A DNA stretch of 51,160 bases from a virus. The stretch spans positions 1-51,160 of IMG/VR virus record IMGVR_UViG_3300037742_000043. One strand, written 5' to 3'. A program made the translations under genes and the position numbers. This document shows positions 3,427 to 51,160 of the stretch, piece by piece (the first letter of the stretch is position 1; each line of letters starts with the position of its first letter). Under the pieces are notes generated by a model. That model ran no database searches. It was not told where the DNA came from and worked only from the letters and a program-made list of their open reading frames with translations.

Positions 3427-4631
3427 CCTTTCACCTTAATAGTTGGTGCCTTTTTGCTGCTATATTTGGCACGAAGATACGCCTTTGTCTCTTCAGTCAA
3501 GCTTGGCGAGGCTAGAGCCTGATCTAGTGTTGCTTGCCCAGAATCAATTCTCTGAATCGCAGCCTTAGCTTGTGGCGTTTCATTCATCGCCGCAGCCTCT
3601 TGACTCTGCTTCATCATCTCAGGCAGCTTCTCCAGCACCTTTTTCTGTGCATCAGCATAAAACTTCGCTTCTTCTTTCGCATCCATCTTCGCCGCCTGAA
3701 GCTGCTGATACCTTTCAATCGCTGCTGGATTAATACTCTTAGCCATCTTCTTCTGCTGTTCTGGACTTGACTTGAGATACATCGCGAACATGTTGTCTTG
3801 TTGCAGCATTGTCACAATTTCTCGATCAGCGTCCATGACCTTGTTGTTCTTCTCAGCAACAGCAGAGCCAAAGATTCGTGCGCGATCAAGCAAAGCATCA
3901 GGAGTAGTCCCAGCGGTTCTCTCTTTCATCAACGACCGCTCAGCCGCAGTCCTACGCCCAAGCATGTCAATATCCTCATCATGCGCCATCCGTTTCCTAC
4001 GTGTCTCAACTGCTTCTTTGAGTACAAGCTCAGCAGGACTCCCTTCTATTCGCTTAAGCGCAAGAGGATTCGCAGATCCCTTAATAACCTGATCTGCAAG
4101 TCGCTCAAGATTTACATCACTAAGCTCAGGATACTGATCCCAACTCTGTTTCTGTAACGCCTCTGCCTCATCAAGTCGCTTTAGTGAAAATCTATCCTTT
4201 GCAATCGCTTGTTCGTTTCGTGTGACTTGTTGACTTGCGATTACATCAGCTTGTTCTCTCTCCTTCGCTTGTCGATCAATGTCAGCTTGTACAACAGTGC
4301 CGACTTCACGCGCATCAGCGATGGCCTTTTGTTGATCAGTGAGTCCACCACGAATCGCCGCGATTCGTTCTCTCTCCGCGCGCTTCGCACCAACCCCAAT
4401 CTTCGCGAGTGGATTCTTATTCTTCGCTCCTAGCGCTTTACTAAAGGTCTCTCTCTGTCCATCATCCATATCCGCAATCACATTCACCAGATTTGGATCT
4501 TGTTGTGCCATCTGATTGAATGTTTGTTGTGCATAAAAGTCTGGCGCGATGCCTTGTGCGATACTTTGAAAGAAGGACTGAAGTCCGCGCTGTGTATTCG
4601 GATTCTCAGACCACGATGGAATGTATGCCAT
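3423..4631 (-). CDS. charged coiled-coil protein (putative internal core protein), 402 aa
   Basis: K/E/A/Q-rich helical composition, coupled to the downstream 1120-aa ORF, AGGA-type RBS. Confidence 0.4.
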   Translation of the reverse strand: MAYIPSWSENPNTQRGLQSFFQSIAQGIAPDFYAQQTFNQMAQQDPNLVNVIADMDDGQRETFSKALGAKNKNPLAKIGVGAKRAERERIAAIRGGLTDQQKAIADAREVGTVVQADIDRQAKEREQADVIASQQVTRNEQAIAKDRFSLKRLDEAEALQKQSWDQYPELSDVNLERLADQVIKGSANPLALKRIEGSPAELVLKEAVETRRKRMAHDEDIDMLGRRTAAERSLMKERTAGTTPDALLDRARIFGSAVAEKNNKVMDADREIVTMLQQDNMFAMYLKSSPEQQKKMAKSINPAAIERYQQLQAAKMDAKEEAKFYADAQKKVLEKLPEMMKQSQEAAAMNETPQAKAAIQRIDSGQATLDQALASPSLTEETKAYLRAKYSSKKAPTIKVKG

Positions 4632-4663
4632 AATTGTCCTATGTGTGTTGGATTGTTATTGGC

Positions 4664-6388
4664 TCAACCGCCCCATCGTATCGCGTTACCGCCGCCGCCA
4701 GATCCACCATTGCCGCCGCCTCGATTACTCATCCACCCACCAATCGCTTGTCCTGCAATCGGCAACGCTGCACCAAGCACACCACCCAATGCACTACCCT
4801 GTTGATTCGTCTGAGTATTCCGCCCTTCGATCCCAATCCCTGTGCTCTGTCCAAGAGCTTGCAGCAAGGATTGTAGCGCCATCTGCTGATTCTGATTCGC
4901 AAGCTGATTATTATTCTGCCCCATGCCTAGCATCTCCAAAAAGCGATTCTGATTGTTCTGATAGTTGTTCGAGTTCAGAACATTCGTATTCCCTTGTTGG
5001 TTCGCAAGTTGATTCTGGTTCGTTAGATTAAAGTCGTTTTGATTTCGACTCGCTTCTAGAGAATTCAGATTGTTATTCTGCATCGCGCTGTTATTCAGAG
5101 TTTGCGCGTTCACTCCAAATGTGTTACCAAGTCCTTGATTCTCAAGCAGTGCGCGGATATCAGCAAGAGATCTGTTGTTTGTTTGTTCAGCATTGAACGT
5201 GCTTTGATCTTGGCGCTGGCCAGCAGTAAACTGTTGGTTCTGGAAATCTTGTCCACGTCCAAGTCCAGCAGCTTGAAGCAAGGAAGACATCAACTGATTG
5301 TTCTGACCTTGACCATTCACCATCGCTTGAAGATTCGCGATATTCGCCTGTGTCGAGTTCCCCGCATTGGCTATTCCAACTTGAGCGTCCTGTCCTCGAC
5401 TGGTGAGTCCGACATTTGCCCTCGTCCCTCTTTCGGCAAGATCTTGTTGCTGGAGACCTTCAAGTGCTTTCTGCAAAGCGACTGTTTGATCTGCGCTCGC
5501 TGCTGATTGAAGATTGCTGTTTGCAAGCTGCGCACCCGATCCAATAGCTCCAGCTCCCATTGCGCCAAATCGAGCATTGTTCGCAGCCGTCGCTTCTGTA
5601 AGTGCTCTAGCTTGCTGAGTTTTGAGCGCATTGAAGTATGGATTGTTCATGTCGAACACTGTTGCGGCATCAAGAGCAATGCCGGGGCCAATAGATGCTT
5701 GTCCAGCAGCGGCTGAGCCGACGTTCCCGTTCTGTCCTGTCATCTGCTGACCACGACCAAGCAATGACGAAAGTACATCTGTATACTGTGATCCGGCAGC
5801 TTGAGGATTAAACGAACTCAGCGCTGTTTGATTCACGCCGGATAGATCAGCCATTCCGGTTTGACCTTGACCAAAGTTCGTATTCAGATTATTCGTTTGT
5901 CCCTGCACATACTGTTGACTAGTGTAGGGGTTTTGATAATTCTGCCCAAACTGACTAGCACCTTGCCCGATCCCCGATGCAATCTGCGCATTCGCGCCAC
6001 TCGGATCAATCACTTGACCGTTTAACATATTGTTAAAGGCATTGGTGAAGGGTGATCCGTTTTGATTGAAGGAGGATGGGAGATTCGGGCCGACACCGAG
6101 ACCAGATGTCGCCGCGCCATTCTGCCCTCCACCACCTGTAAACGATCCATCAGGATTAAATCTATAGCCTGCACGTTCAGCAGCAGAGATTTGCTGACTG
6201 TTCATCTGACCGCCTCCACTAATAGGAGAGCCGCCGAAATGAGTATTACCACCACCCATCCTAGATTGAAACTGTCCGCCACCATTCACATTCCCTGTCA
6301 ACTGACTCATGAGCCATGATTGAAACTCATTGGCCACAGGAGTTGCCGCACCTCCACCACTTGTCGTCGATACCGTCTTCGCGCCCAT
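4664..6388 (-). CDS. Q/N/G-rich low-complexity virion protein, 574 aa
   Basis: Long ORF dominated by Q, N, G and S with a G-rich C-terminus (GGGNGGSGGGGN). Lies in the structural operon. Confidence 0.5.
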   Translation of the reverse strand: MGAKTVSTTSGGGAATPVANEFQSWLMSQLTGNVNGGGQFQSRMGGGNTHFGGSPISGGGQMNSQQISAAERAGYRFNPDGSFTGGGGQNGAATSGLGVGPNLPSSFNQNGSPFTNAFNNMLNGQVIDPSGANAQIASGIGQGASQFGQNYQNPYTSQQYVQGQTNNLNTNFGQGQTGMADLSGVNQTALSSFNPQAAGSQYTDVLSSLLGRGQQMTGQNGNVGSAAAGQASIGPGIALDAATVFDMNNPYFNALKTQQARALTEATAANNARFGAMGAGAIGSGAQLANSNLQSAASADQTVALQKALEGLQQQDLAERGTRANVGLTSRGQDAQVGIANAGNSTQANIANLQAMVNGQGQNNQLMSSLLQAAGLGRGQDFQNQQFTAGQRQDQSTFNAEQTNNRSLADIRALLENQGLGNTFGVNAQTLNNSAMQNNNLNSLEASRNQNDFNLTNQNQLANQQGNTNVLNSNNYQNNQNRFLEMLGMGQNNNQLANQNQQMALQSLLQALGQSTGIGIEGRNTQTNQQGSALGGVLGAALPIAGQAIGGWMSNRGGGNGGSGGGGNAIRWGG

Positions 6389-15096: not shown

Positions 15097-17085
15097 TTAG
15101 TAAGCTGCTCCGCCGAGCAAGCCTGCAAGGCCGCTAGGTACTTGTCCCGATACGTCTCCAGAGCCGATATTAATGTTTGTGACGCTGTTGTCTGGAGGAG
15201 TGTACGGAGTTCCAACATTTCCGGCGGAGAGAGCCCGCTGATTTGGGTCTGTGAGCGTGGGATCTCCATTCATTGACATGGGTTGAGGTGAGGGGAGAGG
15301 CGGTGGGACAGCGATGAGGTATTCTTTTGGATCTCTGACATTAAAAGTGCCAAGAATCTGACTGAAGACTTGATTGGCACCCTTGATGGCTTGACGATAG
15401 CCTTCGTGAAGGACTGGATCTTGTGTCTGTGGCAGGGCTTGAAGAATGGGGATCAGACTATTGTAATACTGTTGCGCCGCACCTGATAACTGTGTCATCG
15501 TCTGACGATCAAGCATCTGATTGTCATTCTGATCAACCATGTGAACGTCGAGAATCAGTTTCTTTCGAAAGTCCTCGTATGGCCTCTTGAGAAACATCTC
15601 AATCTCACTACCTTGAGGACTATACTTCAGTCTCTCAATATTGGGGCCATACTGGACGATGTTAAGCACACCATCAGAAGCAAGCTGGGAGAGAAATCGT
15701 AGAGTAGCCCGATGTGTGTAATCTCCCTTTCGTTGAGACTCTTGCACACGGAGTGAAGAATCAGTCGCTGTTCCAGGTGTTCCCACTCCGGGCATTCCGA
15801 GTGTGATTTCATTAATCCCTGTGCGTTGTTGGGAGTAGATCATGGCTTGGTTTTCCATGTTGAACGCAGAGGCGTAGATCTCTTCGTTCTTCATGGGTTG
15901 GACATCGTCCATGTCGTCGACCCACCAGATTTTATTCGGGAAGATCGGTTCGTTGTCGCGGATGCTGTTGTTGCCTTTACGCACTTTCCACATGCGCGTG
16001 TTGGCGATGGTGCCGGAGTCGATGATTTGGCGATGCTGAGTCGAGACCTCTTCTTGGAAAGATCTATTCATCTCAGCCAAGCCAATGCCGGTCCAGCGAT
16101 AGGGCTTAGAGAAGAAGTTGCAGCTTCTCTGAGGCCGACGCAGATCCTCAAGCGGATTGTAAAAACATCCGACTAAACTCCGACTATCTTTATGATAAAT
16201 CGCGCAGATCTCTTGAAACTCCTGCTTGTCATCAATCGGGACATTGCGGGACAGGGCATACTCTTTCATCCCCTTTGTCAACTTCTCAACAGGAAATTGG
16301 AGATAGATATAGAAGAAGTTTAACTGCTGTGGCCAGCCCGGAATTCGATTATCTAGCCTCTCCTCGTTCCAAAGTGTCTCTCGTACTTGTGTTGTCGCGA
16401 CAGTTGGCGGGAAGTAGTAGCCTCGCAGTTTCTCTGTTGTGCCCGACTCGAACATTCCTTCTTGCTCTGCTTCTTGCACCTGAAGTGGATTCATGAAGAA
16501 GACTTGCCCGCACCATCTTGCGGTCTGTTGATCAACTTGGTCGAACGGCATGAGGAAGTTGGTGACCGGAATGGACTCGAAGACGTTGCCTTCTTTGACT
16601 ATCACCTCAAAGGGCTTTCCGTTTCTCATCCCCTTCTTGACAATCTTCTGCCATGTCGCTTGTGCCACACCTGTGCCGAGCAGGATCTGCTCTTGAATCG
16701 CCGGCTTGATCAGCTCAAGCATCTCTCCTTGAAGAATAAACTCATCATCGAAGAAGATCTCTAGCTCATCCTTGATTGCTGCTGCGGCTGGATCTTTGAC
16801 ATTGGCTGCGATCTTCTGCGGCATAGCTTCCAACTTCTGAAAGGTACGCGCCTCCGTTGCTTCAAATGCAATCGCCGTGAGTGGGACGATGAAGCGACTC
16901 GCACCAATGAATGGGAAAGTCGTCTGCTCATCACTAGGCTTTGCAATATAGTCTCGTTGATAATCATTGATTTCCTGAATCCAATTGCCTCTTTCACTGA
17001 GATGATTCACCAACTCAGTATCCAGATGCTGAATCAGTGCCTCTTTGATTTCTGGATTGAGTTTGAGTTGAGTTGGGTAGTTCAT
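15097..17085 (-). CDS. portal protein, 662 aa
   Basis: Size and position between TerL/HNH and the scaffold/capsid genes. Confidence 0.65.
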   Translation of the reverse strand: MNYPTQLKLNPEIKEALIQHLDTELVNHLSERGNWIQEINDYQRDYIAKPSDEQTTFPFIGASRFIVPLTAIAFEATEARTFQKLEAMPQKIAANVKDPAAAAIKDELEIFFDDEFILQGEMLELIKPAIQEQILLGTGVAQATWQKIVKKGMRNGKPFEVIVKEGNVFESIPVTNFLMPFDQVDQQTARWCGQVFFMNPLQVQEAEQEGMFESGTTEKLRGYYFPPTVATTQVRETLWNEERLDNRIPGWPQQLNFFYIYLQFPVEKLTKGMKEYALSRNVPIDDKQEFQEICAIYHKDSRSLVGCFYNPLEDLRRPQRSCNFFSKPYRWTGIGLAEMNRSFQEEVSTQHRQIIDSGTIANTRMWKVRKGNNSIRDNEPIFPNKIWWVDDMDDVQPMKNEEIYASAFNMENQAMIYSQQRTGINEITLGMPGVGTPGTATDSSLRVQESQRKGDYTHRATLRFLSQLASDGVLNIVQYGPNIERLKYSPQGSEIEMFLKRPYEDFRKKLILDVHMVDQNDNQMLDRQTMTQLSGAAQQYYNSLIPILQALPQTQDPVLHEGYRQAIKGANQVFSQILGTFNVRDPKEYLIAVPPPLPSPQPMSMNGDPTLTDPNQRALSAGNVGTPYTPPDNSVTNINIGSGDVSGQVPSGLAGLLGGAAY

Positions 17086-17093
17086 TGAGGCGA

Positions 17094-17453
17094 TTAGTGG
17101 GCGACGGCGACGGACTTCGACGGACGAGCGGTGATGGTCATTCCTTTATGTTGCTTGCGATGGCAGGAAAGGCAGAGATAAGTGCCGTTGTCAACGGCTA
17201 CAGACTTTGTAGGGTCTGAGTAGACAGGCACTTTATGATGCACATGCTTGCCTCGCTTGTTGCAATCAGGATCGGCACACATGTTGTTGCAGCGGGCACG
17301 GACTTCTTTGAGGAAGGCTTGATATTCTGTTGTTTTAAAAAGAAGGTCGCGAAGCTGATTCCAGATCTTGAAGAAGTCTTCACGATCCAGTCCGCCCCTT
17401 CGTTTCAAATTCACCATCCGATTGATGATCACTGCGGCAGAAAGATCAGGCAT
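17094..17453 (-). CDS. HNH endonuclease, 119 aa
   Basis: CADPDC...HVHHKVP...N...CLSCHRKQH motif set. The ATG at 17453 overlaps the TerL stop by 8 nt. The 254-aa track ORF is an out-of-frame extension into TerL. Confidence 0.8.
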   Translation of the reverse strand: MPDLSAAVIINRMVNLKRRGGLDREDFFKIWNQLRDLLFKTTEYQAFLKEVRARCNNMCADPDCNKRGKHVHHKVPVYSDPTKSVAVDNGTYLCLSCHRKQHKGMTITARPSKSVAVAH

Positions 17454-19056
17454 ATTTGATGGCCGAGTAGCCGGTGGCGATTGATCGAGACCTATTGAAC
17501 TTGTCAAGCGCTTCATCTCGTTGATTGACTTCGACGTCCTTGATTGAGGTGCGCCAGACTTCTGGACCCATAGCCAAAGCATCAAGAGAGTGGATGTCGC
17601 TGCCATAGGGGAATGATCGGTATTGATCGACAATGCTGTCTTTTTGTGAAGAGTGGAACCAGATCTTGCCATTGGCGAACCATTGACGAAGGACCCTGAT
17701 TCGATCTTCTTTCTGCTTCTGCTTCGTCGTGACCATGATGACACGAAAGAATGTGCCGCGCAGTCGCATCTCTCTCTTGAACACATTCTCAAAGAGGCCA
17801 GAGAAGAGAACCTTTTCGCAGACGAAGGCACGTGGATTCCACTTAGCAACAAGGCCAAAGATCATGGAGATGAATGCCTCTGGAACAAGCTTCTCCTGTA
17901 CGACTTGCAGGATGTAGACAACGCCCCATCGGTCTGTACCTGTGACAACAATGCCAGAGAAGCCTGTCATTGCAGGATCAGCTAGGATCAAGATGTCAAG
18001 CTCTCTCGTGTCGATTCGACGAAAGGTTCCGTCAAGCTGTACCGCGGTGATTTCAAATGGTCGATCGTCAACAAATTCAAAATATCTCTCCCACTCCTGA
18101 CTGAACTCCCCTTCCGTCTCCATCGGGTTGTTCATGTACTGAGAATTGAACATCGCGAGATCGTTGGCTTTCATCTCTTCAATATCTTCCCAGCTTGTCG
18201 CCTCGGGCCAGATTAGGTACTTTTGATTCTTTTCATCCCTTTCGTAGATAGACCGTGTGTAGATCTTGAGACGAGTCTTGAAGTCCTCTTTGATGACCGA
18301 ATAGATGTCATCTTTGCGATAGCGAACACCTTCAAAGTCTACATGCGTCGCGTTCATTTGAGTGAACATACCTTTGAGATCGCGGACCCATGTCTTAGCA
18401 GCAGTGAAATCAGCTTCGGACTGCATTGCGTTAAGTCCAACGATGTCATTCACCTTCATCATGTCAAAGTGCTTACCTTGACCTGCGGCGCCACGGCCCA
18501 TGACTGTGAAGGTAGACTCGGGCCATGACTTGGTTCGTGGTAATTCTAAGTTGGTTTGATTTACACGAAGATGCTTACCGGGGACAAGTTCTGGAAACAA
18601 GGCAACAAGAAACTCTTCATCAAAGATCTTCCCAGTGATGGCTTGAAGGTTCTCGCTGGCGGTTGTTTGGACTTCGTGCGCGAGAAGGATGCGGACGTTG
18701 GTGCCAAGATTGCGCGGAAAGGGTTGATTGCCACTGTCGTCAGGCAACGCGATCTGAATACTATCACTAATCGTATTGATCGTTGTCTTGAGAAAGCCGC
18801 GCGGCATGAGGATGAGTCTGAACCTGTCCTCATTCGTCTTACCCATCCATGTGCAGAAGTCACCGTGCAGGGCTGTTGGCCGCCCTTCTTTCGTCCGCAG
18901 TCGATCAAAGCCGAGGACAGTGTCAGACAGAAAAAAGAGATCACACTTAGTTCTTCGACGAAGCAGAGCAACTTCAGTATCCGTCTGACTCTCTCGTACC
19001 TTATCCGCCTTCCTTCTCAGCTCATCTGTGTTGATAATTCGTTCGTCATCACTCAT
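17446..19056 (-). CDS. terL: terminase large subunit, 536 aa
   Basis: Size and TerS-TerL-portal order. N-terminal ATPase-like segment (LILMPRGFLKTT) and an acidic nuclease-like C-terminal half. Confidence 0.8.
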   Translation of the reverse strand: MSDDERIINTDELRRKADKVRESQTDTEVALLRRRTKCDLFFLSDTVLGFDRLRTKEGRPTALHGDFCTWMGKTNEDRFRLILMPRGFLKTTINTISDSIQIALPDDSGNQPFPRNLGTNVRILLAHEVQTTASENLQAITGKIFDEEFLVALFPELVPGKHLRVNQTNLELPRTKSWPESTFTVMGRGAAGQGKHFDMMKVNDIVGLNAMQSEADFTAAKTWVRDLKGMFTQMNATHVDFEGVRYRKDDIYSVIKEDFKTRLKIYTRSIYERDEKNQKYLIWPEATSWEDIEEMKANDLAMFNSQYMNNPMETEGEFSQEWERYFEFVDDRPFEITAVQLDGTFRRIDTRELDILILADPAMTGFSGIVVTGTDRWGVVYILQVVQEKLVPEAFISMIFGLVAKWNPRAFVCEKVLFSGLFENVFKREMRLRGTFFRVIMVTTKQKQKEDRIRVLRQWFANGKIWFHSSQKDSIVDQYRSFPYGSDIHSLDALAMGPEVWRTSIKDVEVNQRDEALDKFNRSRSIATGYSAIKYA

Positions 19057-36569: not shown

Positions 36570-36870
36570 CTACGACTCACACGCGCAAACAGAATACTGG
36601 CATCGGCGGACATTAGGTCGAGCTGAGCCGCCCGACTCGCCGCCCGATGATCCATTAAAAGAAGAAGAATTCTGCATAAGATGCGACAATCCTCTTGGTG
36701 ACGGCGATGATAATAAATTATGCGAAGCTTGCATCGAGGAAGAAGACGACGATGCAGAATGCCCCGACTGTGGCGAGCCAGTAGACAACGATGGAGATTA
36801 CTGCGACGCATGTTTGGATGATGAAGATGACGACCTTGAAATCGACTTCAATGATGACGATGACCTATGA
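36559..36870 (+). CDS. highly acidic double zinc-ribbon protein, 103 aa
   Basis: CIRC...CEAC and CPDC...CDAC pairs embedded in D/E runs. Confidence 0.6.
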   Translation: MDSDYDSHAQTEYWHRRTLGRAEPPDSPPDDPLKEEEFCIRCDNPLGDGDDNKLCEACIEEEDDDAECPDCGEPVDNDGDYCDACLDDEDDDLEIDFNDDDDL

Positions 36871-37064
36871 GCCCAAACAGATCAATGGTGATGGTTCATC
36901 TCTTTGTCGGACTTTTGACCATCACCCTCATCATCCTCAAACTAACATCAGTCCTCTCATGGTCATGGCTCTGGATTCTCGCTCCAATCTGGCTCGACCT
37001 TCTCACTCACATCATCCTTCTCCTCTTCGTCTTCATCCTCGCCCTCCTCGTAGACAAGCGATAG
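36867..37064 (+). CDS. small membrane protein, 65 aa
   Basis: ATGA coupling, almost entirely hydrophobic. Confidence 0.55.
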   Translation: MSPNRSMVMVHLFVGLLTITLIILKLTSVLSWSWLWILAPIWLDLLTHIILLLFVFILALLVDKR

Positions 37065-37105
37065 ATGCTAAATAATCACATAAAATCATTCTTTAGGAGA
37101 CTTAA

Positions 37106-37384
37106 ATGACAGAAATTCCTACTCCAACCTGCGAAGAAATTTGGGAAGGACAAGAAGATACATATCTTCCAGTAAGTAAGAAGCTTGACGACTCGTGGAG
37201 ACACGGTAACAGAGTTACTGAAGTGTTTCACCGACCAGCAGATGACACATACTGGCGAGTTCACTACCGTAAGAGCGGTGACGGAGAAGCAAACGAGTTT
37301 CGAGAAGGTGATGCAGACATCTTGCAGGTGTTTCCACACACTAAGACTGTTGAAGTAACAGAATACTTGTCAAAGCCATGCTAA
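37106..37384 (+). CDS. hypothetical protein, 92 aa
   Basis: Track ORF. Confidence 0.6.
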   Translation: MTEIPTPTCEEIWEGQEDTYLPVSKKLDDSWRHGNRVTEVFHRPADDTYWRVHYRKSGDGEANEFREGDADILQVFPHTKTVEVTEYLSKPC

Positions 37385-37437
37385 TTCATGACGTGCCAAA
37401 GAGAAGGTTTCTTGATACAATACTTGATGCGACTTGA
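37378..37437 (+). pseudogene. degenerate duplicate of the 5' end of the 37954 nuclease gene (19 codons)
   Basis: MLIHDVPKRRFL here against MLIHDIPKRKFL at 37954. The ATG overlaps the upstream stop (ATGCTAA). A frameshift follows CTTGA. Confidence 0.6.
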
Positions 37438-37953
37438 TATGGTGATTTATGCTAAACAGAGTTCAAGTATCTTGGACACCAAAACGAAAAGAACTTAGAA
37501 AGGCAGCTCACGCACGTCAGAACGGAAGATGTAAGATTTGCGGGCATAAGCAGAAACTTAAAAAAATGTCTCTACATCATATCATTCATAGAGAACATGG
37601 TGGAGCAGACTCTTATGAAAACACAGTAGTTCTATGTCTTCCATGTCATCAGAAGATTCATAACAATAAGGAGAAGAAATGATTCTCGAAGCATTACTCA
37701 CAATAAAATTCGATTTAGAGATAACAGAACTTAAATTTTTCTATGTTGATTCTAAGTTTCGGTGCGCCATAGAAAAGAACGAAGTTTTCCCATATCTTCT
37801 ATGGTTAACTGAATACTTCAAAAAAGATGTTGAACACAAGCTCACCATTGAACAAATGATGCAAGACTTTCCTGATAAGGCGCAAGATGTAAGTTCTTTG
37901 GACGGACACATGAAACCATCTTACGCATGGACTATTCTTAAACAAGACGAATA
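37438..37953 (+). mobile_element. free-standing HNH endonuclease cassette (HNH plus a 91-aa ORF)
   Basis: Flanked by the two copies of the nuclease 5' end. AT-richer than its surroundings by eye. Confidence 0.55.
37449..37682 (+). CDS. HNH endonuclease, 77 aa
   Basis: CKICGH...LHHIIHREHGG...N...LCLPCHQKIH. Confidence 0.8.
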   Translation: MLNRVQVSWTPKRKELRKAAHARQNGRCKICGHKQKLKKMSLHHIIHREHGGADSYENTVVLCLPCHQKIHNNKEKK

Positions 37954-37954
37954 A
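37679..37954 (+). CDS. hypothetical protein, 91 aa
   Basis: ATGA coupling to the HNH gene, TAATG overlap with the nuclease gene. Confidence 0.55.
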   Translation: MILEALLTIKFDLEITELKFFYVDSKFRCAIEKNEVFPYLLWLTEYFKKDVEHKLTIEQMMQDFPDKAQDVSSLDGHMKPSYAWTILKQDE

Positions 37955-38910
37955 TGTTAATCCACGACATACCAAAGCGAAAGTTTCTTCCGCAGCTTGA
38001 GCGAAGCGAGCCATTGATCAAAGACCACACCGCAACACAGTACTTTCGCGACTGTAAAAGGAAGTATTTCTACGCAATGGTGGCCGGGCGCAGACCAAAG
38101 TCTAGCGAGATGCAAAACATTTGGGATTGGGGCAGCGGAGTGCACAAGTTTATTGAAGAATACTCGATGCACTTTGACTATGACAAAGCAGTCGCCGCCG
38201 CCATTCCTGTCTCAGGATTCTTAAACAAGAATCGACTCCCTATGCCGAAAAAATGGGAGCATCTTGACAGCAGCAGATTCGAAGAGACAATGATAGCACT
38301 CGCCAAATTCTTCGATCAAGAGAAGAAGGATGGATATATTCATACAGAGAGTGTAGAAGCACCATTCAATCTTGAGCTGCCAGACGGCTCTGTCATTGGT
38401 GGACGAATGGATGCAGTGCTAAGATTCTCTGGTGGTCAGGTCTGGGTTCGTGATCACAAGACCTCAACCAAGCCCGCGATGTGGTTCATCAAAGGTCTCG
38501 ACCCGAACGATCAAGCCACACGCTACGTCTACGCCATGTCTCGTATGCTAGGCTGGAACAGCAAGGATCAGCAGGTATCAAAGAAAGCAAACGGCCTCGA
38601 ATACTTACTCATCAGCAACGAAGCGAATCTAGTCAAAGGCAAGCGCAAACCTCAAATCTCCCGTCATCCCATTACCAAGTCCAACGAACAACTTGTAAAC
38701 TGGGAACGACAGCAGATGTTCCGTCACATCGACATGGCCCTGCATCGTGAGCACGATGAATGGCCAATGGAAGAAGGGAGTCAATGTCAATGGTGCGACT
38801 ACGTATCAGTCTGCCGCGCACCGACAGAGGAGAACATGCGCCAACGACTTCAATCTGACTTCCTACACCAACCTTGGGATCATCAAACAGTGGAGCAGAA
38901 GGAGAGATAG
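37954..38910 (+). CDS. PD-(D/E)XK nuclease, Cas4/RecB-like, 318 aa
   Basis: N-terminal Cys (YFRDCKRKYFY), GRMDAV, VRDHKTS, QATRYVYA, and a C-terminal CQWCDYVSVC cluster. Confidence 0.75.
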   Translation: MLIHDIPKRKFLPQLERSEPLIKDHTATQYFRDCKRKYFYAMVAGRRPKSSEMQNIWDWGSGVHKFIEEYSMHFDYDKAVAAAIPVSGFLNKNRLPMPKKWEHLDSSRFEETMIALAKFFDQEKKDGYIHTESVEAPFNLELPDGSVIGGRMDAVLRFSGGQVWVRDHKTSTKPAMWFIKGLDPNDQATRYVYAMSRMLGWNSKDQQVSKKANGLEYLLISNEANLVKGKRKPQISRHPITKSNEQLVNWERQQMFRHIDMALHREHDEWPMEEGSQCQWCDYVSVCRAPTEENMRQRLQSDFLHQPWDHQTVEQKER

Positions 38911-38912
38911 TC

Positions 38913-39278
38913 ATGGGCAGATTTGATTATGTCTATTCCAAGATGCTAAGGCACAAAGCTCCACGCGCTACTGACTTTCAATCATGGCTTATGCAAAGCT
39001 TGACTGGTGATGTAGAGGTGATCAATCAGGCGAGAGAGAACGTAATAAAGGCGAGTGAAAACTTTCAACGACAAGACGAGCCTAGCTTTCCCAACAAGAT
39101 ATGTTGGTGTAATGCAACACAACAGTATGTTCAACAACGCACTGGCATCTATAAACTTACTCTCGGTATACCTAACGAACCACTCATCTGCATCTGGTGC
39201 AAGCGACCAACCACGACTGACGTATGCTCAGGCTGTGGCGGAGCAGGGACTCAACTTAACAATCAAAAGGAGAAATAA
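38913..39278 (+). CDS. Cys-rich protein sharing an N-terminal motif with the Q/N-rich virion protein, 121 aa
   Basis: Start moved to ATG 38913 (GGAGAG RBS). CWC...CIWC...CSGCGG. Confidence 0.55.
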   Translation: MGRFDYVYSKMLRHKAPRATDFQSWLMQSLTGDVEVINQARENVIKASENFQRQDEPSFPNKICWCNATQQYVQQRTGIYKLTLGIPNEPLICIWCKRPTTTDVCSGCGGAGTQLNNQKEK

Positions 39279-46173: not shown

Positions 46174-46371
46174 ATGAGAATTATAGACCAAAATGACGAA
46201 CAAGATCGCAGAGTCATCACAGTAGAGTTTGACAGCGTAGATCTTATGAAGCTGCATCGAAGAACCTTAGCAAGGTTTCACAATGTTCTACACGACATGC
46301 TAAACGAACTCTATCCGGAAGTAGATGAAGATGATAAGCAAGAAGAAAGTCAATCACATCGGTCCACTTGA
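46174..46371 (+). CDS. hypothetical acidic protein, 65 aa
   Basis: AAGGAAAAGG RBS. Its 3' end overlaps the polA-N start. Confidence 0.45.
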   Translation: MRIIDQNDEQDRRVITVEFDSVDLMKLHRRTLARFHNVLHDMLNELYPEVDEDDKQEESQSHRST

Positions 46372-47962
46372 TGCCTCGATCTTCATCCTCGGAAAAGCGC
46401 CCGGAGCAGACGAGGATCATTATGGCATTCCATTTGTAGGCCAAATCGGTAAGTTTCTCGACCATTGCCTTTCTCTCGCCGGAATAGATCGAGAATCCTG
46501 CCGCATCGGAAATGTCTGCAACTACAAACCAACAAGAAACATCTTCGCAATTCTGAAAGACTCTGATCAACTAAAGGAATCTCATGCCGAACTCTCTGCT
46601 TACTTGGAAACGTACAGACCTCGCATTATCATCGCTCTTGGAAATGAAGCTTTGCGATATCTTAGACATCACGATGGAATCTCTAATTGGCGAGGAAGTG
46701 TCTTACCATATTCACATAATTCATTCATCATACCGACCTACCACCCTGCTGACGCCATCCGAGACGGAACCTTCGCCCCACAAGTTGTCTTCGATCTCAC
46801 CAAGGCCAAGCGAGTTTTAGATCATGGCTACACCAGACCAGTCCATGACTTCGTAATCGACCCGCACCCTGATCAACTCGAATCAATCCTAGAAGAGGTG
46901 CGCAATGCCCCGTTCATCGCCGCCGACATTGAAACAGGAATGTCAACGTCTTATGTCAAGTGTTTCGGCTTCGCAGTCAGTTCAAACAGAGCCTTTACCT
47001 TCCGAAATCATTACGATGTTGGTATCGAGCAATCTTTTTCCAAGATGGTATCTGCTGTTATATCAGCAGCCAAGGAGATCGTCTACCACAACGGCAGCTA
47101 CGACACCTCGCAACTAAGAGACAATCATGTCGAATACGCAGAAAGGCTTGACTATGACACCATGCTCGCCCAGCGAGTCCTCGAACCTGACCTTCCAATC
47201 GGTCTCGCCTTCTGTGCCTCTATCTACACCGACGAACCGTACTACAAAAACGACGGAAAGGAAACAGGCAAGCGCATTACGTGGGAGAAACTTGCACCGT
47301 ACAATTGTATCGACTGTATTGTTACATGGCAGACGAGGGTTGAGCAAGAAAAGATTTTCGCGCTGGATAGTATTCTCGATACTGACAGGAAATTCATATT
47401 CAGCCGTATACCCCTTATGCAAGAATTTCAGCGCAATGGGATGCTGGTTGATGAAGAAAGAAGGGATACGCTTCGCAGATCGACACAGGCCAAGCTATCA
47501 CAATCAGAAAGGATTGTTAACATATCCACCGGCTACTCTCTTAACTTCCGAAGCTCTAAGCAAGTAAAGTCGCTTCTTTACGACATTCTAAAACTACCGA
47601 TCAGAAAGAAGCGAAACGCAAGTGGCGAAGAAGTAATCTCCGCCGACGAAGACGCAATTGTCTCCCTTATCCAATACGTTCAAGGGCAAATAGATGACAA
47701 AAAGACAAATACGGGTAGAGATCCGTGGCTCCTTCGACTTTATGCCCTCAAGAGTATCCTCGATATTAGAGGCAATGAGAAGCTTATTTCTTCCTACTTC
47801 GATGCAGCATCATCCGCCGACGGACGCATACGTTCCTCCTACTATCCTGCTGGAACAGACACAGGAAGATGGAGTTGTGGTACTTACGTTGACGGAACAG
47901 GATTGAATGCGCAAACACTCCCAAGACTTGAAATCGAAATCACTACTCAACAGGAGGCATGA
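46325..47962 (+). CDS. polA: DNA polymerase A, N-terminal piece: UDG-like domain + 3'-5' exonuclease + N-terminal part of the polymerase domain, 545 aa
   Basis: UDG family-4-like GKAPGADEDHYGIPFVGQIGKFL...HPA. Exo motifs FIAADIETG, YHNGSYD, YNCID. DGRIRSSYYPAGTDTGRWS...NAQTLP, then a stop 12 codons later. Confidence 0.8.
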   Translation: MKMISKKKVNHIGPLDASIFILGKAPGADEDHYGIPFVGQIGKFLDHCLSLAGIDRESCRIGNVCNYKPTRNIFAILKDSDQLKESHAELSAYLETYRPRIIIALGNEALRYLRHHDGISNWRGSVLPYSHNSFIIPTYHPADAIRDGTFAPQVVFDLTKAKRVLDHGYTRPVHDFVIDPHPDQLESILEEVRNAPFIAADIETGMSTSYVKCFGFAVSSNRAFTFRNHYDVGIEQSFSKMVSAVISAAKEIVYHNGSYDTSQLRDNHVEYAERLDYDTMLAQRVLEPDLPIGLAFCASIYTDEPYYKNDGKETGKRITWEKLAPYNCIDCIVTWQTRVEQEKIFALDSILDTDRKFIFSRIPLMQEFQRNGMLVDEERRDTLRRSTQAKLSQSERIVNISTGYSLNFRSSKQVKSLLYDILKLPIRKKRNASGEEVISADEDAIVSLIQYVQGQIDDKKTNTGRDPWLLRLYALKSILDIRGNEKLISSYFDAASSADGRIRSSYYPAGTDTGRWSCGTYVDGTGLNAQTLPRLEIEITTQQEA

Positions 47963-48499: not shown

Positions 48500-48700
48500 A
48501 TGAGGTTCAATAACTTAACAGACGAACAACTCAACAAACTAGTTCAGCAGTTTGAGTCAGCTATCGCTCTTGCCAATAACACTGGAACGGTTCATTTCGC
48601 CCTCGACGCTCTCAACGAAGTACAAGGCGAGATTAATCGAAGACAAGAGTTGAGGCTCAAGCAAGAAGTTCCAAGTTGGTGGCAAGGCTTGTTGAGATGA
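48500..48700 (+). CDS. intervening ORF 3, 66 aa
   Basis: RBS lies inside junction-repeat copy C. ATGA coupling to polA-C. Confidence 0.55.
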   Translation: MRFNNLTDEQLNKLVQQFESAIALANNTGTVHFALDALNEVQGEINRRQELRLKQEVPSWWQGLLR

Positions 48701-49542
48701 GCGCTCTCCCAATCCAATCTGCAAAGAAAAAAGCCGCTATTCGATCCTTCATCACTTGCGCCCCCGCCAACGTACTCATCGAACTCGACCTCAGCGCAGC
48801 AGAAAGCTGGTGCGTAGCTCATCTCGCGAATGATCAGAACATGATTCAGCAGTTAGAGCTAGGACAGCTTCATCAGTATTCTGCGCGGATGATCTTCCGC
48901 GATCCATCAATCACCAAGGCGAACAAGACCGAGTACTACATCGGCAAACGAATGAACCATCTTTGCGGTTACCGTGGCAGTCCTGAGATGCTAACAACAA
49001 CAATCAACAAAGATGGCGAGATCACAGTCGCACTAAGACAGATCAAAGTCTACCACAAGCTCTGGCACTCAACCTACAACATCACAAATTGGTGGGCCGA
49101 CATTGAGCGACGACTGCGAAATAACGATGGAACGCTCATTACTGCTTACGGAAAGAAACGGAAGTTCTGGGGTTTTTTTAATAGCGATCTACTTAAGGCC
49201 GCCACAGCCTTTGAGCCTCAGAGTCTGGTGTCATATCATATGGACGGTGCTGTCCATCCTGACATCGGCATTCCGGGAGGCTTACTCGAAATCCAAAGAC
49301 AAATCACAATCCCATATCCATCTATCAGACTCATTAACACATCACACGACAGCGTCCTCATCGAATGCCCTCGGCCCATCTCACTGGAAATAGCCCTACG
49401 TTGTAAAGCCTTACTTACTCGGCCATTGATGATTCATGGCCAGACCTTTACTATCCCGGTGGATTGTGAGCGATACGATAGAAGATGGAAGGAAGACGGA
49501 GAGCGACTTGTCGGTGAACGGTTCGAGAGCATTGGTCATTGA
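48697..49542 (+). CDS. polA: DNA polymerase A, C-terminal piece (motifs A, B, C), 281 aa
   Basis: Start at ATG 48697 (ATGA coupling). LPIQSAKKKAAIRSF, motif A LIELDLSAAESW, motif B GKRMNHLCGYRGS, motif C TSHDSVLIE. Confidence 0.8.
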   Translation: MSALPIQSAKKKAAIRSFITCAPANVLIELDLSAAESWCVAHLANDQNMIQQLELGQLHQYSARMIFRDPSITKANKTEYYIGKRMNHLCGYRGSPEMLTTTINKDGEITVALRQIKVYHKLWHSTYNITNWWADIERRLRNNDGTLITAYGKKRKFWGFFNSDLLKAATAFEPQSLVSYHMDGAVHPDIGIPGGLLEIQRQITIPYPSIRLINTSHDSVLIECPRPISLEIALRCKALLTRPLMIHGQTFTIPVDCERYDRRWKEDGERLVGERFESIGH

Positions 49543-51033: not shown

Positions 51034-51160
51034 CAAAAAGGCCCGATCATCCAATCACTCGGATGTCGGGCTCTTTTCTTCCTTCGCTCGGCTTCTCTAG
51101 TCTTTGATGCCTTTGTACAGCTCCATCGCCTGCCGCGCAGTAAGTATTCGCAACGCCACC
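51034..51160. repeat. terminal direct repeat, copy 2 (identical to 1-127)
   Basis: Exact 127-nt match to the window start. Confidence 0.95.

Follow-up and report, generated by a model that had tools for sequence, protein, structure and literature searches.

A stranded nuclease gene start beside an HNH gene in an uncultured phage genome and its possible origin by one-sided homing

The closest described counterparts of the locus reported here are the free-standing homing endonuclease genes of T-even phages (seg and mob). IMG/VR record IMGVR_UViG_3300037742_000043, whose positions 1 to 51,160 form the 51,160-nucleotide stretch that was analysed and is termed the window, was obtained from a metagenome and represents the complete, circularly assembled genome (about 51 kb) of an uncultured phage. 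In this genome an AT-rich cassette, which carries a gene for a 77-aa HNH nuclease domain (HNH77) and a 91-aa open reading frame (ORF) termed orf91, separates the gene for a Cas4/RecB-like nuclease from an orphan copy of that gene's first 12 codons. As with seg and mob, a nuclease of a homing endonuclease superfamily lies between genes and beside a conserved DNA-metabolism gene, is compositionally foreign and is tied to an exchange of flanking alleles (PMC2988022). The resemblance is incomplete in that HNH77 is a bare domain, whereas Mob and I-HmuI-type enzymes carry an extra DNA-binding region, and in that the window locus retains a duplicated gene start, which is not a product of ordinary homing.

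Such a product has a closer parallel in the one-sided homing of the T4 td intron. According to PMC2988022, which cites Parker, Belisle and Belfort (1999), homing by one-sided illegitimate double-strand-break repair was documented experimentally in T4 under limited exon homology. As presented in that source, only one flank of the break is homologous, the junction on the opposite flank is non-homologous and lies inside the target, and the element is gained without full flanking homology, three traits that the window locus resembles; the T4 case is an engineered intron system with sequenced junctions, whereas the window holds a natural free-standing cassette. In fungal mitochondria, partial C-terminal duplications of atp6 and cob likewise leave a homing-endonuclease-type ORF between a complete gene and its displaced fragment (PMC6279837), but these concern 3' ends, LAGLIDADG or GIY-YIG enzymes and an organelle, and the window locus concerns the 5' end of a phage gene and an HNH enzyme. 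Boundary shuffling in phages, as described for T4-type PeSL cassettes (PMC2839356) and for ICP1 (PMC10448857), is similar in that short border sequences and nuclease genes edge the exchanged modules. In contrast to the PeSL cassettes, the window contains no promoter-stem-loop motif, its recurring element being the ATGCTAA start/stop overlap of the nuclease gene. The locus is a natural example of a known process and not a new class of element.

An orphan nuclease start upstream of an AT-rich cassette

The intact nuclease gene (37954-38910, plus strand, 318 aa; Pfam PDDEXK_1, E=2e-20) opens with 12 codons, copy B (MLIHDIPKRKFL, 37954-37989, plus strand), that recur without gaps 576 nt upstream as the orphan copy A (MLIHDVPKRRFL, 37378-37413, plus strand), 29 of the 36 nt being identical. 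Both copies start with ATG and encode MLIHD[VI]PKR[RK]FL, the conserved N-terminus of a small family of PD-(D/E)XK nucleases with the consensus MLxHDVPKRKFLPTLERSEPLIKDH. When the whole genome was searched on both strands, the second-best match to the 36-mer reached 22/36, and the maximum among shuffled 36-mers (n=300) was 25/36. We recovered the genomic context of 13 other lineages of the nuclease family (given L numbers below) and compared each nuclease start with the DNA upstream of it in a self-versus-upstream repeat test on 17 loci; the window scored 18.5, against a background of 7-13.5 in the relatives. The 36-nt repeat is real, and it is unique to the window genome among the lineages tested. 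Over 12,957 nt around the HNH locus the window does not differ from an independent Logan assembly of SRR12681888, so the arrangement of orphan start and cassette is not an assembly artefact.

The homology covers precisely 12 codons and breaks off sharply at 37413/37414, unlike a gradual frameshift decay. The 35 nt that follow (37414-37448, plus strand) form a junction spacer without detectable homology to the nuclease gene: compared with copy B and with nine relatives they align at chance level (P=0.68-0.72 against dinucleotide shuffles, P=0.80 against random genomic 35-mers), and at codons 13-14 the orphan reading and copy B have 0 of 6 nt in common. A preliminary description of this locus, made from the sequence before any comparison, had carried the duplication on to about 57 nt by placing a 1-nt indel after CTTGA. 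The duplicated start stands over its 36 nt, where it is above chance; the extension (P~0.7) does not, and the decay by frameshift that it would imply is not supported. The CTTGA common to both copies is better explained by a local oddity than by homology, CTTGAT occurring three times within 37411-37438 at a spacing of 10-11 nt (CTTGATACAATACTTGATGCGACTTGAT), precisely at the junction, where none would be expected by chance. Junction microhomology, a binding site and slippage are candidate explanations for this triple, which is only suggestive; Tandem Repeats Finder found no repeat in the junction.

As the preliminary description had it, the ATG of copy A (37378) and the TAA stop of the preceding gene, up92 (92 aa; stop at 37382-37384), overlap as ATGCTAA, and translation from it would end after 19 codons. 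Relatives have comparable start/stop junctions, namely ATGCTAA in L026, ATGCTAG in L004 and L028, or a longer overlap. The 19-codon ORF (37378-37437, plus strand) consists of the orphan start and seven unrelated codons, and its TGA (37435-37437) lies 11 nt before the HNH ATG. Among the 13 related lineages it has no independent homologue in any, so that it is not a conserved gene in its own right, and the orphan copy itself is absent from all of them.

The seven differences between the copies comprise 4.5 synonymous and 2.5 non-synonymous changes (path-averaged; proportions of synonymous and non-synonymous differences, pS and pN, of 0.61 and 0.087), in line with the earlier remark that most of them are synonymous; the probability that at least 5 of the 7 would be synonymous by chance is 0.005, the path-averaged count being 4.5. 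The nuclease start of L027 matches copy A at 31/36 and copy B at 32/36, and each copy is therefore nearer to this relative than to the other copy. Mean identity to the relatives is about 25/36 for copy A and for the working copy B alike, which argues for little decay of the orphan, and the copy A peptide is identical to the N-terminus of P0002 at 11 of 15 residues. Because the differences are biased towards synonymous sites and each copy is nearer to L027 than to its counterpart, the two starts look like alleles that diverged as working genes under purifying selection, and not like an in-genome duplicate that decayed later. Allele-like copies and an orphan with little decay imply in turn that the scar is young and joins DNA of two diverged genomes.

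The 540 nt between the copies (37414-37953) are compositionally foreign. Their GC content is 0.361 against 0.484 for the genome, and windowed GC identifies them as the lowest-GC stretch of the whole window, in agreement with the AT-richness first noted for this interval of about 0.5 kb; by a two-change-point fit the island extends from 37342 to 37960. The insert encodes, as initially described, an HNH protein and a 91-aa ORF. HNH77 (37449-37682, plus strand) matches Pfam PF01844 HNH (E=5.3e-11), HNH_5 (E=1.3e-6) and PHROG HNH families. Its motif, CxxC...HH...N...CxxCH...H, is intact with all catalytic residues and zinc ligands, and these residues can be aligned with the HNH domains found in IscB and in a group II intron maturase. 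The protein is basic (pI 10.2) and less than 45% identical to any HNH protein of 50,697 GenBank phages, which yielded distant matches only; an IMG/VR scan with the HNH77 protein gave one distant match, and a word-indexed protein search returned no candidates, HNH77 itself included. The HNH gene (5496-5729 of the Logan record, L002) is missing from the gene list of that record, probably on account of its poor ribosome-binding signal, a weak Shine-Dalgarno-like GGTGA in the junction spacer 3 nt 5' of the ATG. Small, weakly signalled HNH genes of this kind may be systematically under-annotated.

The second gene of the insert, orf91 (37679-37954, plus strand), encodes an acidic ORFan (pI 4.8) behind a strong AAGGAG ribosome-binding site, and overlaps the HNH gene as ATGA and the nuclease gene as TAATG. 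Word-indexed and full HMMER searches of 5.8 billion clustered and 1.84 billion representative proteins found only orf91 itself, and no Pfam, PHROG, NCBIfam or PADLOC match was obtained. An AlphaFold2 (AF2) model from the single sequence, of modest confidence (predicted local distance difference test, pLDDT, 69), found no fold match at E<=0.001.

The HNH gene itself also opens with ATGCTAA, and the TAA therein is in frame with the orphan ORF. From this layout the 19-codon orphan frame might act as a translational-coupling leader that feeds ribosomes to the weakly signalled HNH ATG, and termination-reinitiation could then give the low-level expression typical of such nucleases. A scan for promoters and terminators gave consensus-level matches near expectation (7 found versus 4.1 expected), among them a -10-like TACAAT at 37416-37421, and neither the count nor this motif is used here as support.

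A variable slot at the 5' border of the nuclease family

The nuclease has 18 homologues at 35-63% identity, the nearest being 63% identical at the protein level with none closer. Among the 50,697 GenBank phages there was no DNA-level match to the locus and no protein-level match to the nuclease. An IMG/VR scan with the single nuclease protein led to 1 distant locus, and a scan with the nuclease alignment A1 to loci L008-L024. Degenerate DNA patterns representing the HNH core and the 12-codon start had no match in metagenome, viral and species-genome collections.

The nuclease start directly adjoins or overlaps a preceding gene or ORF in all lineages examined (an uncalled ORF in L003 and L027), and the genes immediately 5' of the nuclease are unrelated between lineages, while the nuclease is conserved across the family. 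Many relatives carry a conserved gene of about 70 aa further upstream, and the slot between this gene and the nuclease is hypervariable, with 0 or 1 gene. It is empty in L006/7, L008 and L009, and it is occupied by a 49-aa zinc-ribbon gene in L003-5, by an 80-aa gene in L025, by a 62-aa gene in L026, by the gene of a transmembrane (TM) protein homologous to the product of window gene 36867-37064 in L027 and by a 168-aa HNH_3 endonuclease in L028-30. The HNH77-orf91 cassette is absent from all 13 lineages.

The HNH_3 gene (PF13392; L028 region 4273-5939, also in L029 and L030) sits exactly between this conserved gene of about 70 aa and the nuclease. In L008 (1388-1613) and L009 (3007-3214), which are the closest sampled lineages to L028-30, the same position holds a spacer of only 6-9 nt, without HNH_3. 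A homing-type gene other than that of the window is thus cleanly present or absent at this border. Two unrelated HNH genes occupy one gene border in this nuclease family and landed there independently.

Possible routes to the present arrangement

One-sided homing initiated by the HNH protein is in our view the best explanation of the locus, and we propose it with moderate confidence. Two diverged phages of the group would have recombined, one in which up92 abutted its own nuclease gene through the ATGCTAA overlap and one in which the AT-rich cassette of HNH gene and ORFan abutted its own nuclease gene. The right-hand exchange would have been homologous, inside or beyond the nuclease gene, and the left-hand exchange illegitimate, sealed after codon 12 of the resident nuclease gene; since the genes 5' of the nuclease are unrelated between lineages, homology would have been available on one side only, and the left junction would have had to be illegitimate. 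The product would consist, in order, of up92, the orphan start of 12 codons, 35 nt of junction, the HNH gene and orf91, followed by a complete nuclease gene whose start is of donor type. The most probable trigger would be a double-strand break made by the HNH protein within the 5' portion of a nuclease allele lacking the cassette, the whole amounting to intronless homing by a free-standing homing endonuclease with "one-sided" repair. That HNH77 made the break, where it cut and which parent was the recipient we infer from this reconstruction.

The preliminary description had proposed homing with co-conversion from a diverged donor. The diverged donor agrees with the allele-like starts and the foreign block, but co-conversion alone leaves no duplicate: it replaces a flank and does not duplicate it, so that the duplicate needs one non-homologous junction. 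Both marks of one-sided repair are found at the locus, namely homology on one flank only and an abrupt non-homologous junction inside the target gene, and the sharp breakpoint after codon 12 would fit "one-sided" illegitimate double-strand-break repair better than classical co-conversion. The HNH protein was probably the driver, given that it is intact, adjoins the scar and lies in the foreign block, and that a second HNH family entered the same slot.

Several observations weigh against this explanation. HNH77 is a catalytic domain of 77 aa that the HNH match covers entirely, leaving no recognisable DNA-recognition module of the sort carried by characterised free-standing HNH homing enzymes (PMC2988022; PMC12724721), and most PHROG HNH profiles have 115-440 positions, of which HNH77 matches the HNH segment only. 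Judged by its domains, HNH77 has the catalytic part of a bona fide homing endonuclease but no recognisable recognition part, and is a candidate for one rather than an established member. Protein and fold searches detected no DNA-binding similarity in orf91 either, and searches of protein and DNA collections yielded neither a second HNH77 nor a second orf91. Those collections contained no close cassette-free relative in which up92 adjoins the nuclease, so that neither a co-conversion tract nor a target site can be defined. Finally, the slot holds non-nuclease genes in other relatives and may be just a general recombination hot spot.

This last point leads to a tentative alternative, generic mosaic recombination at a hypervariable slot bounded by the nuclease start, in which an illegitimate or short-homology exchange would have brought in the HNH gene and orf91 as cargo without any homing break, HNH77 being possibly a non-specific or otherwise employed nuclease. 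It accounts for a slot with 0 or 1 unrelated genes across the relatives (zinc-ribbon, TM, 62-aa, 80-aa, HNH_3), for an HNH77 devoid of a recognition domain and for the presence of ATGCTAA at three junctions in 385 nt, which is reminiscent of boundary-sequence shuffling (PMC2839356). It leaves aside that the scar directly adjoins an intact nuclease gene of a homing endonuclease superfamily, that an unrelated second HNH gene shows clean presence/absence in the L028 slot versus L008 and L009, and that the compositional anomaly is strong, as is typical of selfish cassettes. An in-genome duplication of the nuclease 5' end upon insertion of the cassette, with the upstream copy then drifting as a pseudogene, would also give an insert flanked by direct repeats and an orphan ORF that stops early. 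We consider it improbable: a pS/pN of about 7 is unexpected under neutral decay, copy A resembles the relatives as much as the functional copy does, the similarity ends abruptly without fading and the indel alignment is at chance level, and 36 nt at 81% identity are unlike a target-site duplication.

The basic HNH77 and the acidic orf91 could alternatively form a nuclease-inhibitor pair, i.e. a toxin/immunity-like or accessory module serving anti-defence or host-DNA degradation, the scar merely recording its arrival. Their contrasting isoelectric points (10.2 vs 4.8) and their translational overlap (ATGA) would suit such a pair, and a bare HNH domain recalls the non-specific HNH DNases that need inhibitors, such as colicin E7 with Im7. 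On the other hand orf91 lacks any homologue or fold match, acidic proteins are common in early phage sets (up92 has a pI of 4.85), and PADLOC and NCBIfam found nothing in the cassette beyond the generic HNH domain, so that we rate this possibility marginally below that of duplication and decay. Least probable of all, and very improbable in itself, is a self-splicing element, a group I intron (or an intein) carrying the HNH gene with copy A as exon 1. In its favour, phage group I introns often house HNH genes, the insert is AT-rich, and a translatable context surrounds the orphan start. Nevertheless no Rfam family, group I introns included, was matched at E<=10 in 37000-38400 and none passed its gathering threshold window-wide, two tightly packed ORFs fill the insert and leave no space for a ribozyme core, the downstream nuclease has its own ATG and complete conserved N-terminus, no Hint/intein domain is present and the ORFs are in different frames.

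Two further candidates were rejected. A target-site duplication by a transposon or insertion sequence (IS) does not agree with repeats of 36 nt that are 81% identical and synonymous-biased, and no transposase domain is present. A packaging HNH protein of the HK97 gp74 or GVE2 type would not be expected here, the terminase gene lying about 18 kb off on the opposite strand and the HNH gene standing in the replication/recombination module.

If one-sided homing is the correct explanation, the locus would be a rare natural "fossil" of a free-standing nuclease cassette entering a phage genome with one homologous flank, the resident gene start having been stranded and a working replacement supplied by the incoming DNA. 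The likely break or junction point is narrowed to a few bases (37413/37414), and copies A and B, with 7 substitutions in 36 nt, provide a concrete allele pair for tests of cleavage and immunity, these substitutions being candidate immunity differences. The border 5' of the Cas4-like nuclease family seems to have been entered repeatedly, by two unrelated HNH genes as well as by assorted small genes, which bears on the origin of mosaicism in phage early regions. The locus fits the general picture of nuclease genes at phage exchange boundaries (PMC10448857).

ATGCTAA occurs 7 times on the plus strand of the window and 0 times on the minus strand, and three of these occurrences mark the junctions of modules within 385 nt, at 37065 (after the TM gene), 37378 (the orphan start) and 37449 (the HNH start). 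The first of them opens a possible older and shorter nuclease-start scar (ATGCTAAATAATCAC, 37065-37079, plus strand) directly after the stop of the TM gene, the evidence for which is weak: it matches copy A at 12/15 and L027 at 11/15, values that place it among the best 1.4-2.6% of the window's ATG sites. The L027 homologue of the TM gene has the nuclease immediately after it, with the nuclease start at the position matching 37065. The ATGCTAA trio and the 15-nt match hint at serial insertions at one point, on thin evidence. A more far-reaching proposal, which we regard as doubtful, is that one-sided insertions directed at the first nuclease codons occurred repeatedly and left their traces in layers upstream of the nuclease 5' end. 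Each event would have stranded an ATGCTAA start piece (the 15-nt trace at 37065, the 36-nt orphan at 37378 and the HNH start at 37449), and the newest invader would exploit the stranded start, its translation being coupled to the upstream gene through this 19-codon leader. Were this so, the nuclease 5' end would be a dedicated landing pad, and selfish cassettes would bring a replacement gene start with them in place of an intron or intein.

Neighbouring genes and genome context

The gene preceding the orphan start, up92 (37106-37384, plus strand; PHROG phrog_24285, E=2.8e-16), has homologues in the Sinorhizobium phages phiM12, phiM7 and phiN3 (40% identity over residues 3-91). It is absent from all relatives of the nuclease family, and an IMG/VR scan with the up92 protein gave no match. 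Upstream of it, the gene at 36867-37064 encodes a 65-aa protein with two TM segments that is 40% identical to the product of L027 203-412, an uncalled ORF that directly precedes the nuclease of that relative.

The nuclease gene itself has a host-like GC content of 0.489. Its product retains a cysteine arrangement of Cas4 type, one N-terminal residue and a C-terminal cluster of three, C278, C281 and C287 being invariant and C34 near-invariant among 16 homologues, and it has weak similarity to Cas4 in PHROG and PADLOC. We also considered whether the 5' end of the gene stands out as the best homing target and found no support for this, since it is conserved above average (0.64-0.70 vs 0.58 nt identity) but other parts of the gene are more conserved. 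Immediately 3' of the nuclease, a 121-aa protein (38913-39278) shows tblastn similarity to 15790-16020 on the minus strand, inside a portal-like ORF (E=2e-6, 32% over 77 aa), and has a further short match at 6287-6340; these similarities may be compositional.

The minus strand holds structural genes, among them the terminase large subunit (17446-19056) and the portal-like gene (15097-17085), and the plus strand an early/replication module that includes, besides the Cas4-like nuclease, a Sak4-like AAA_24 protein, a DNA polymerase and a primase. Positions 51050-51160 repeat positions 1-110, the last 100 nt or so being the same as the first, which points to a circular assembly, or else to a complete genome with terminal redundancy, of about 51.06 kb. 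The DNA polymerase gene is seemingly split in two, the ORFs being separated by about 700 nt that contain three small ORFs (81, 66 and 66 aa), with no obvious endonuclease and no GC anomaly. The two polymerase ORFs, at 46325-47962 and 48676-49542, match positions 464-987 and 993-1140 of PHROG phrog_17, respectively.

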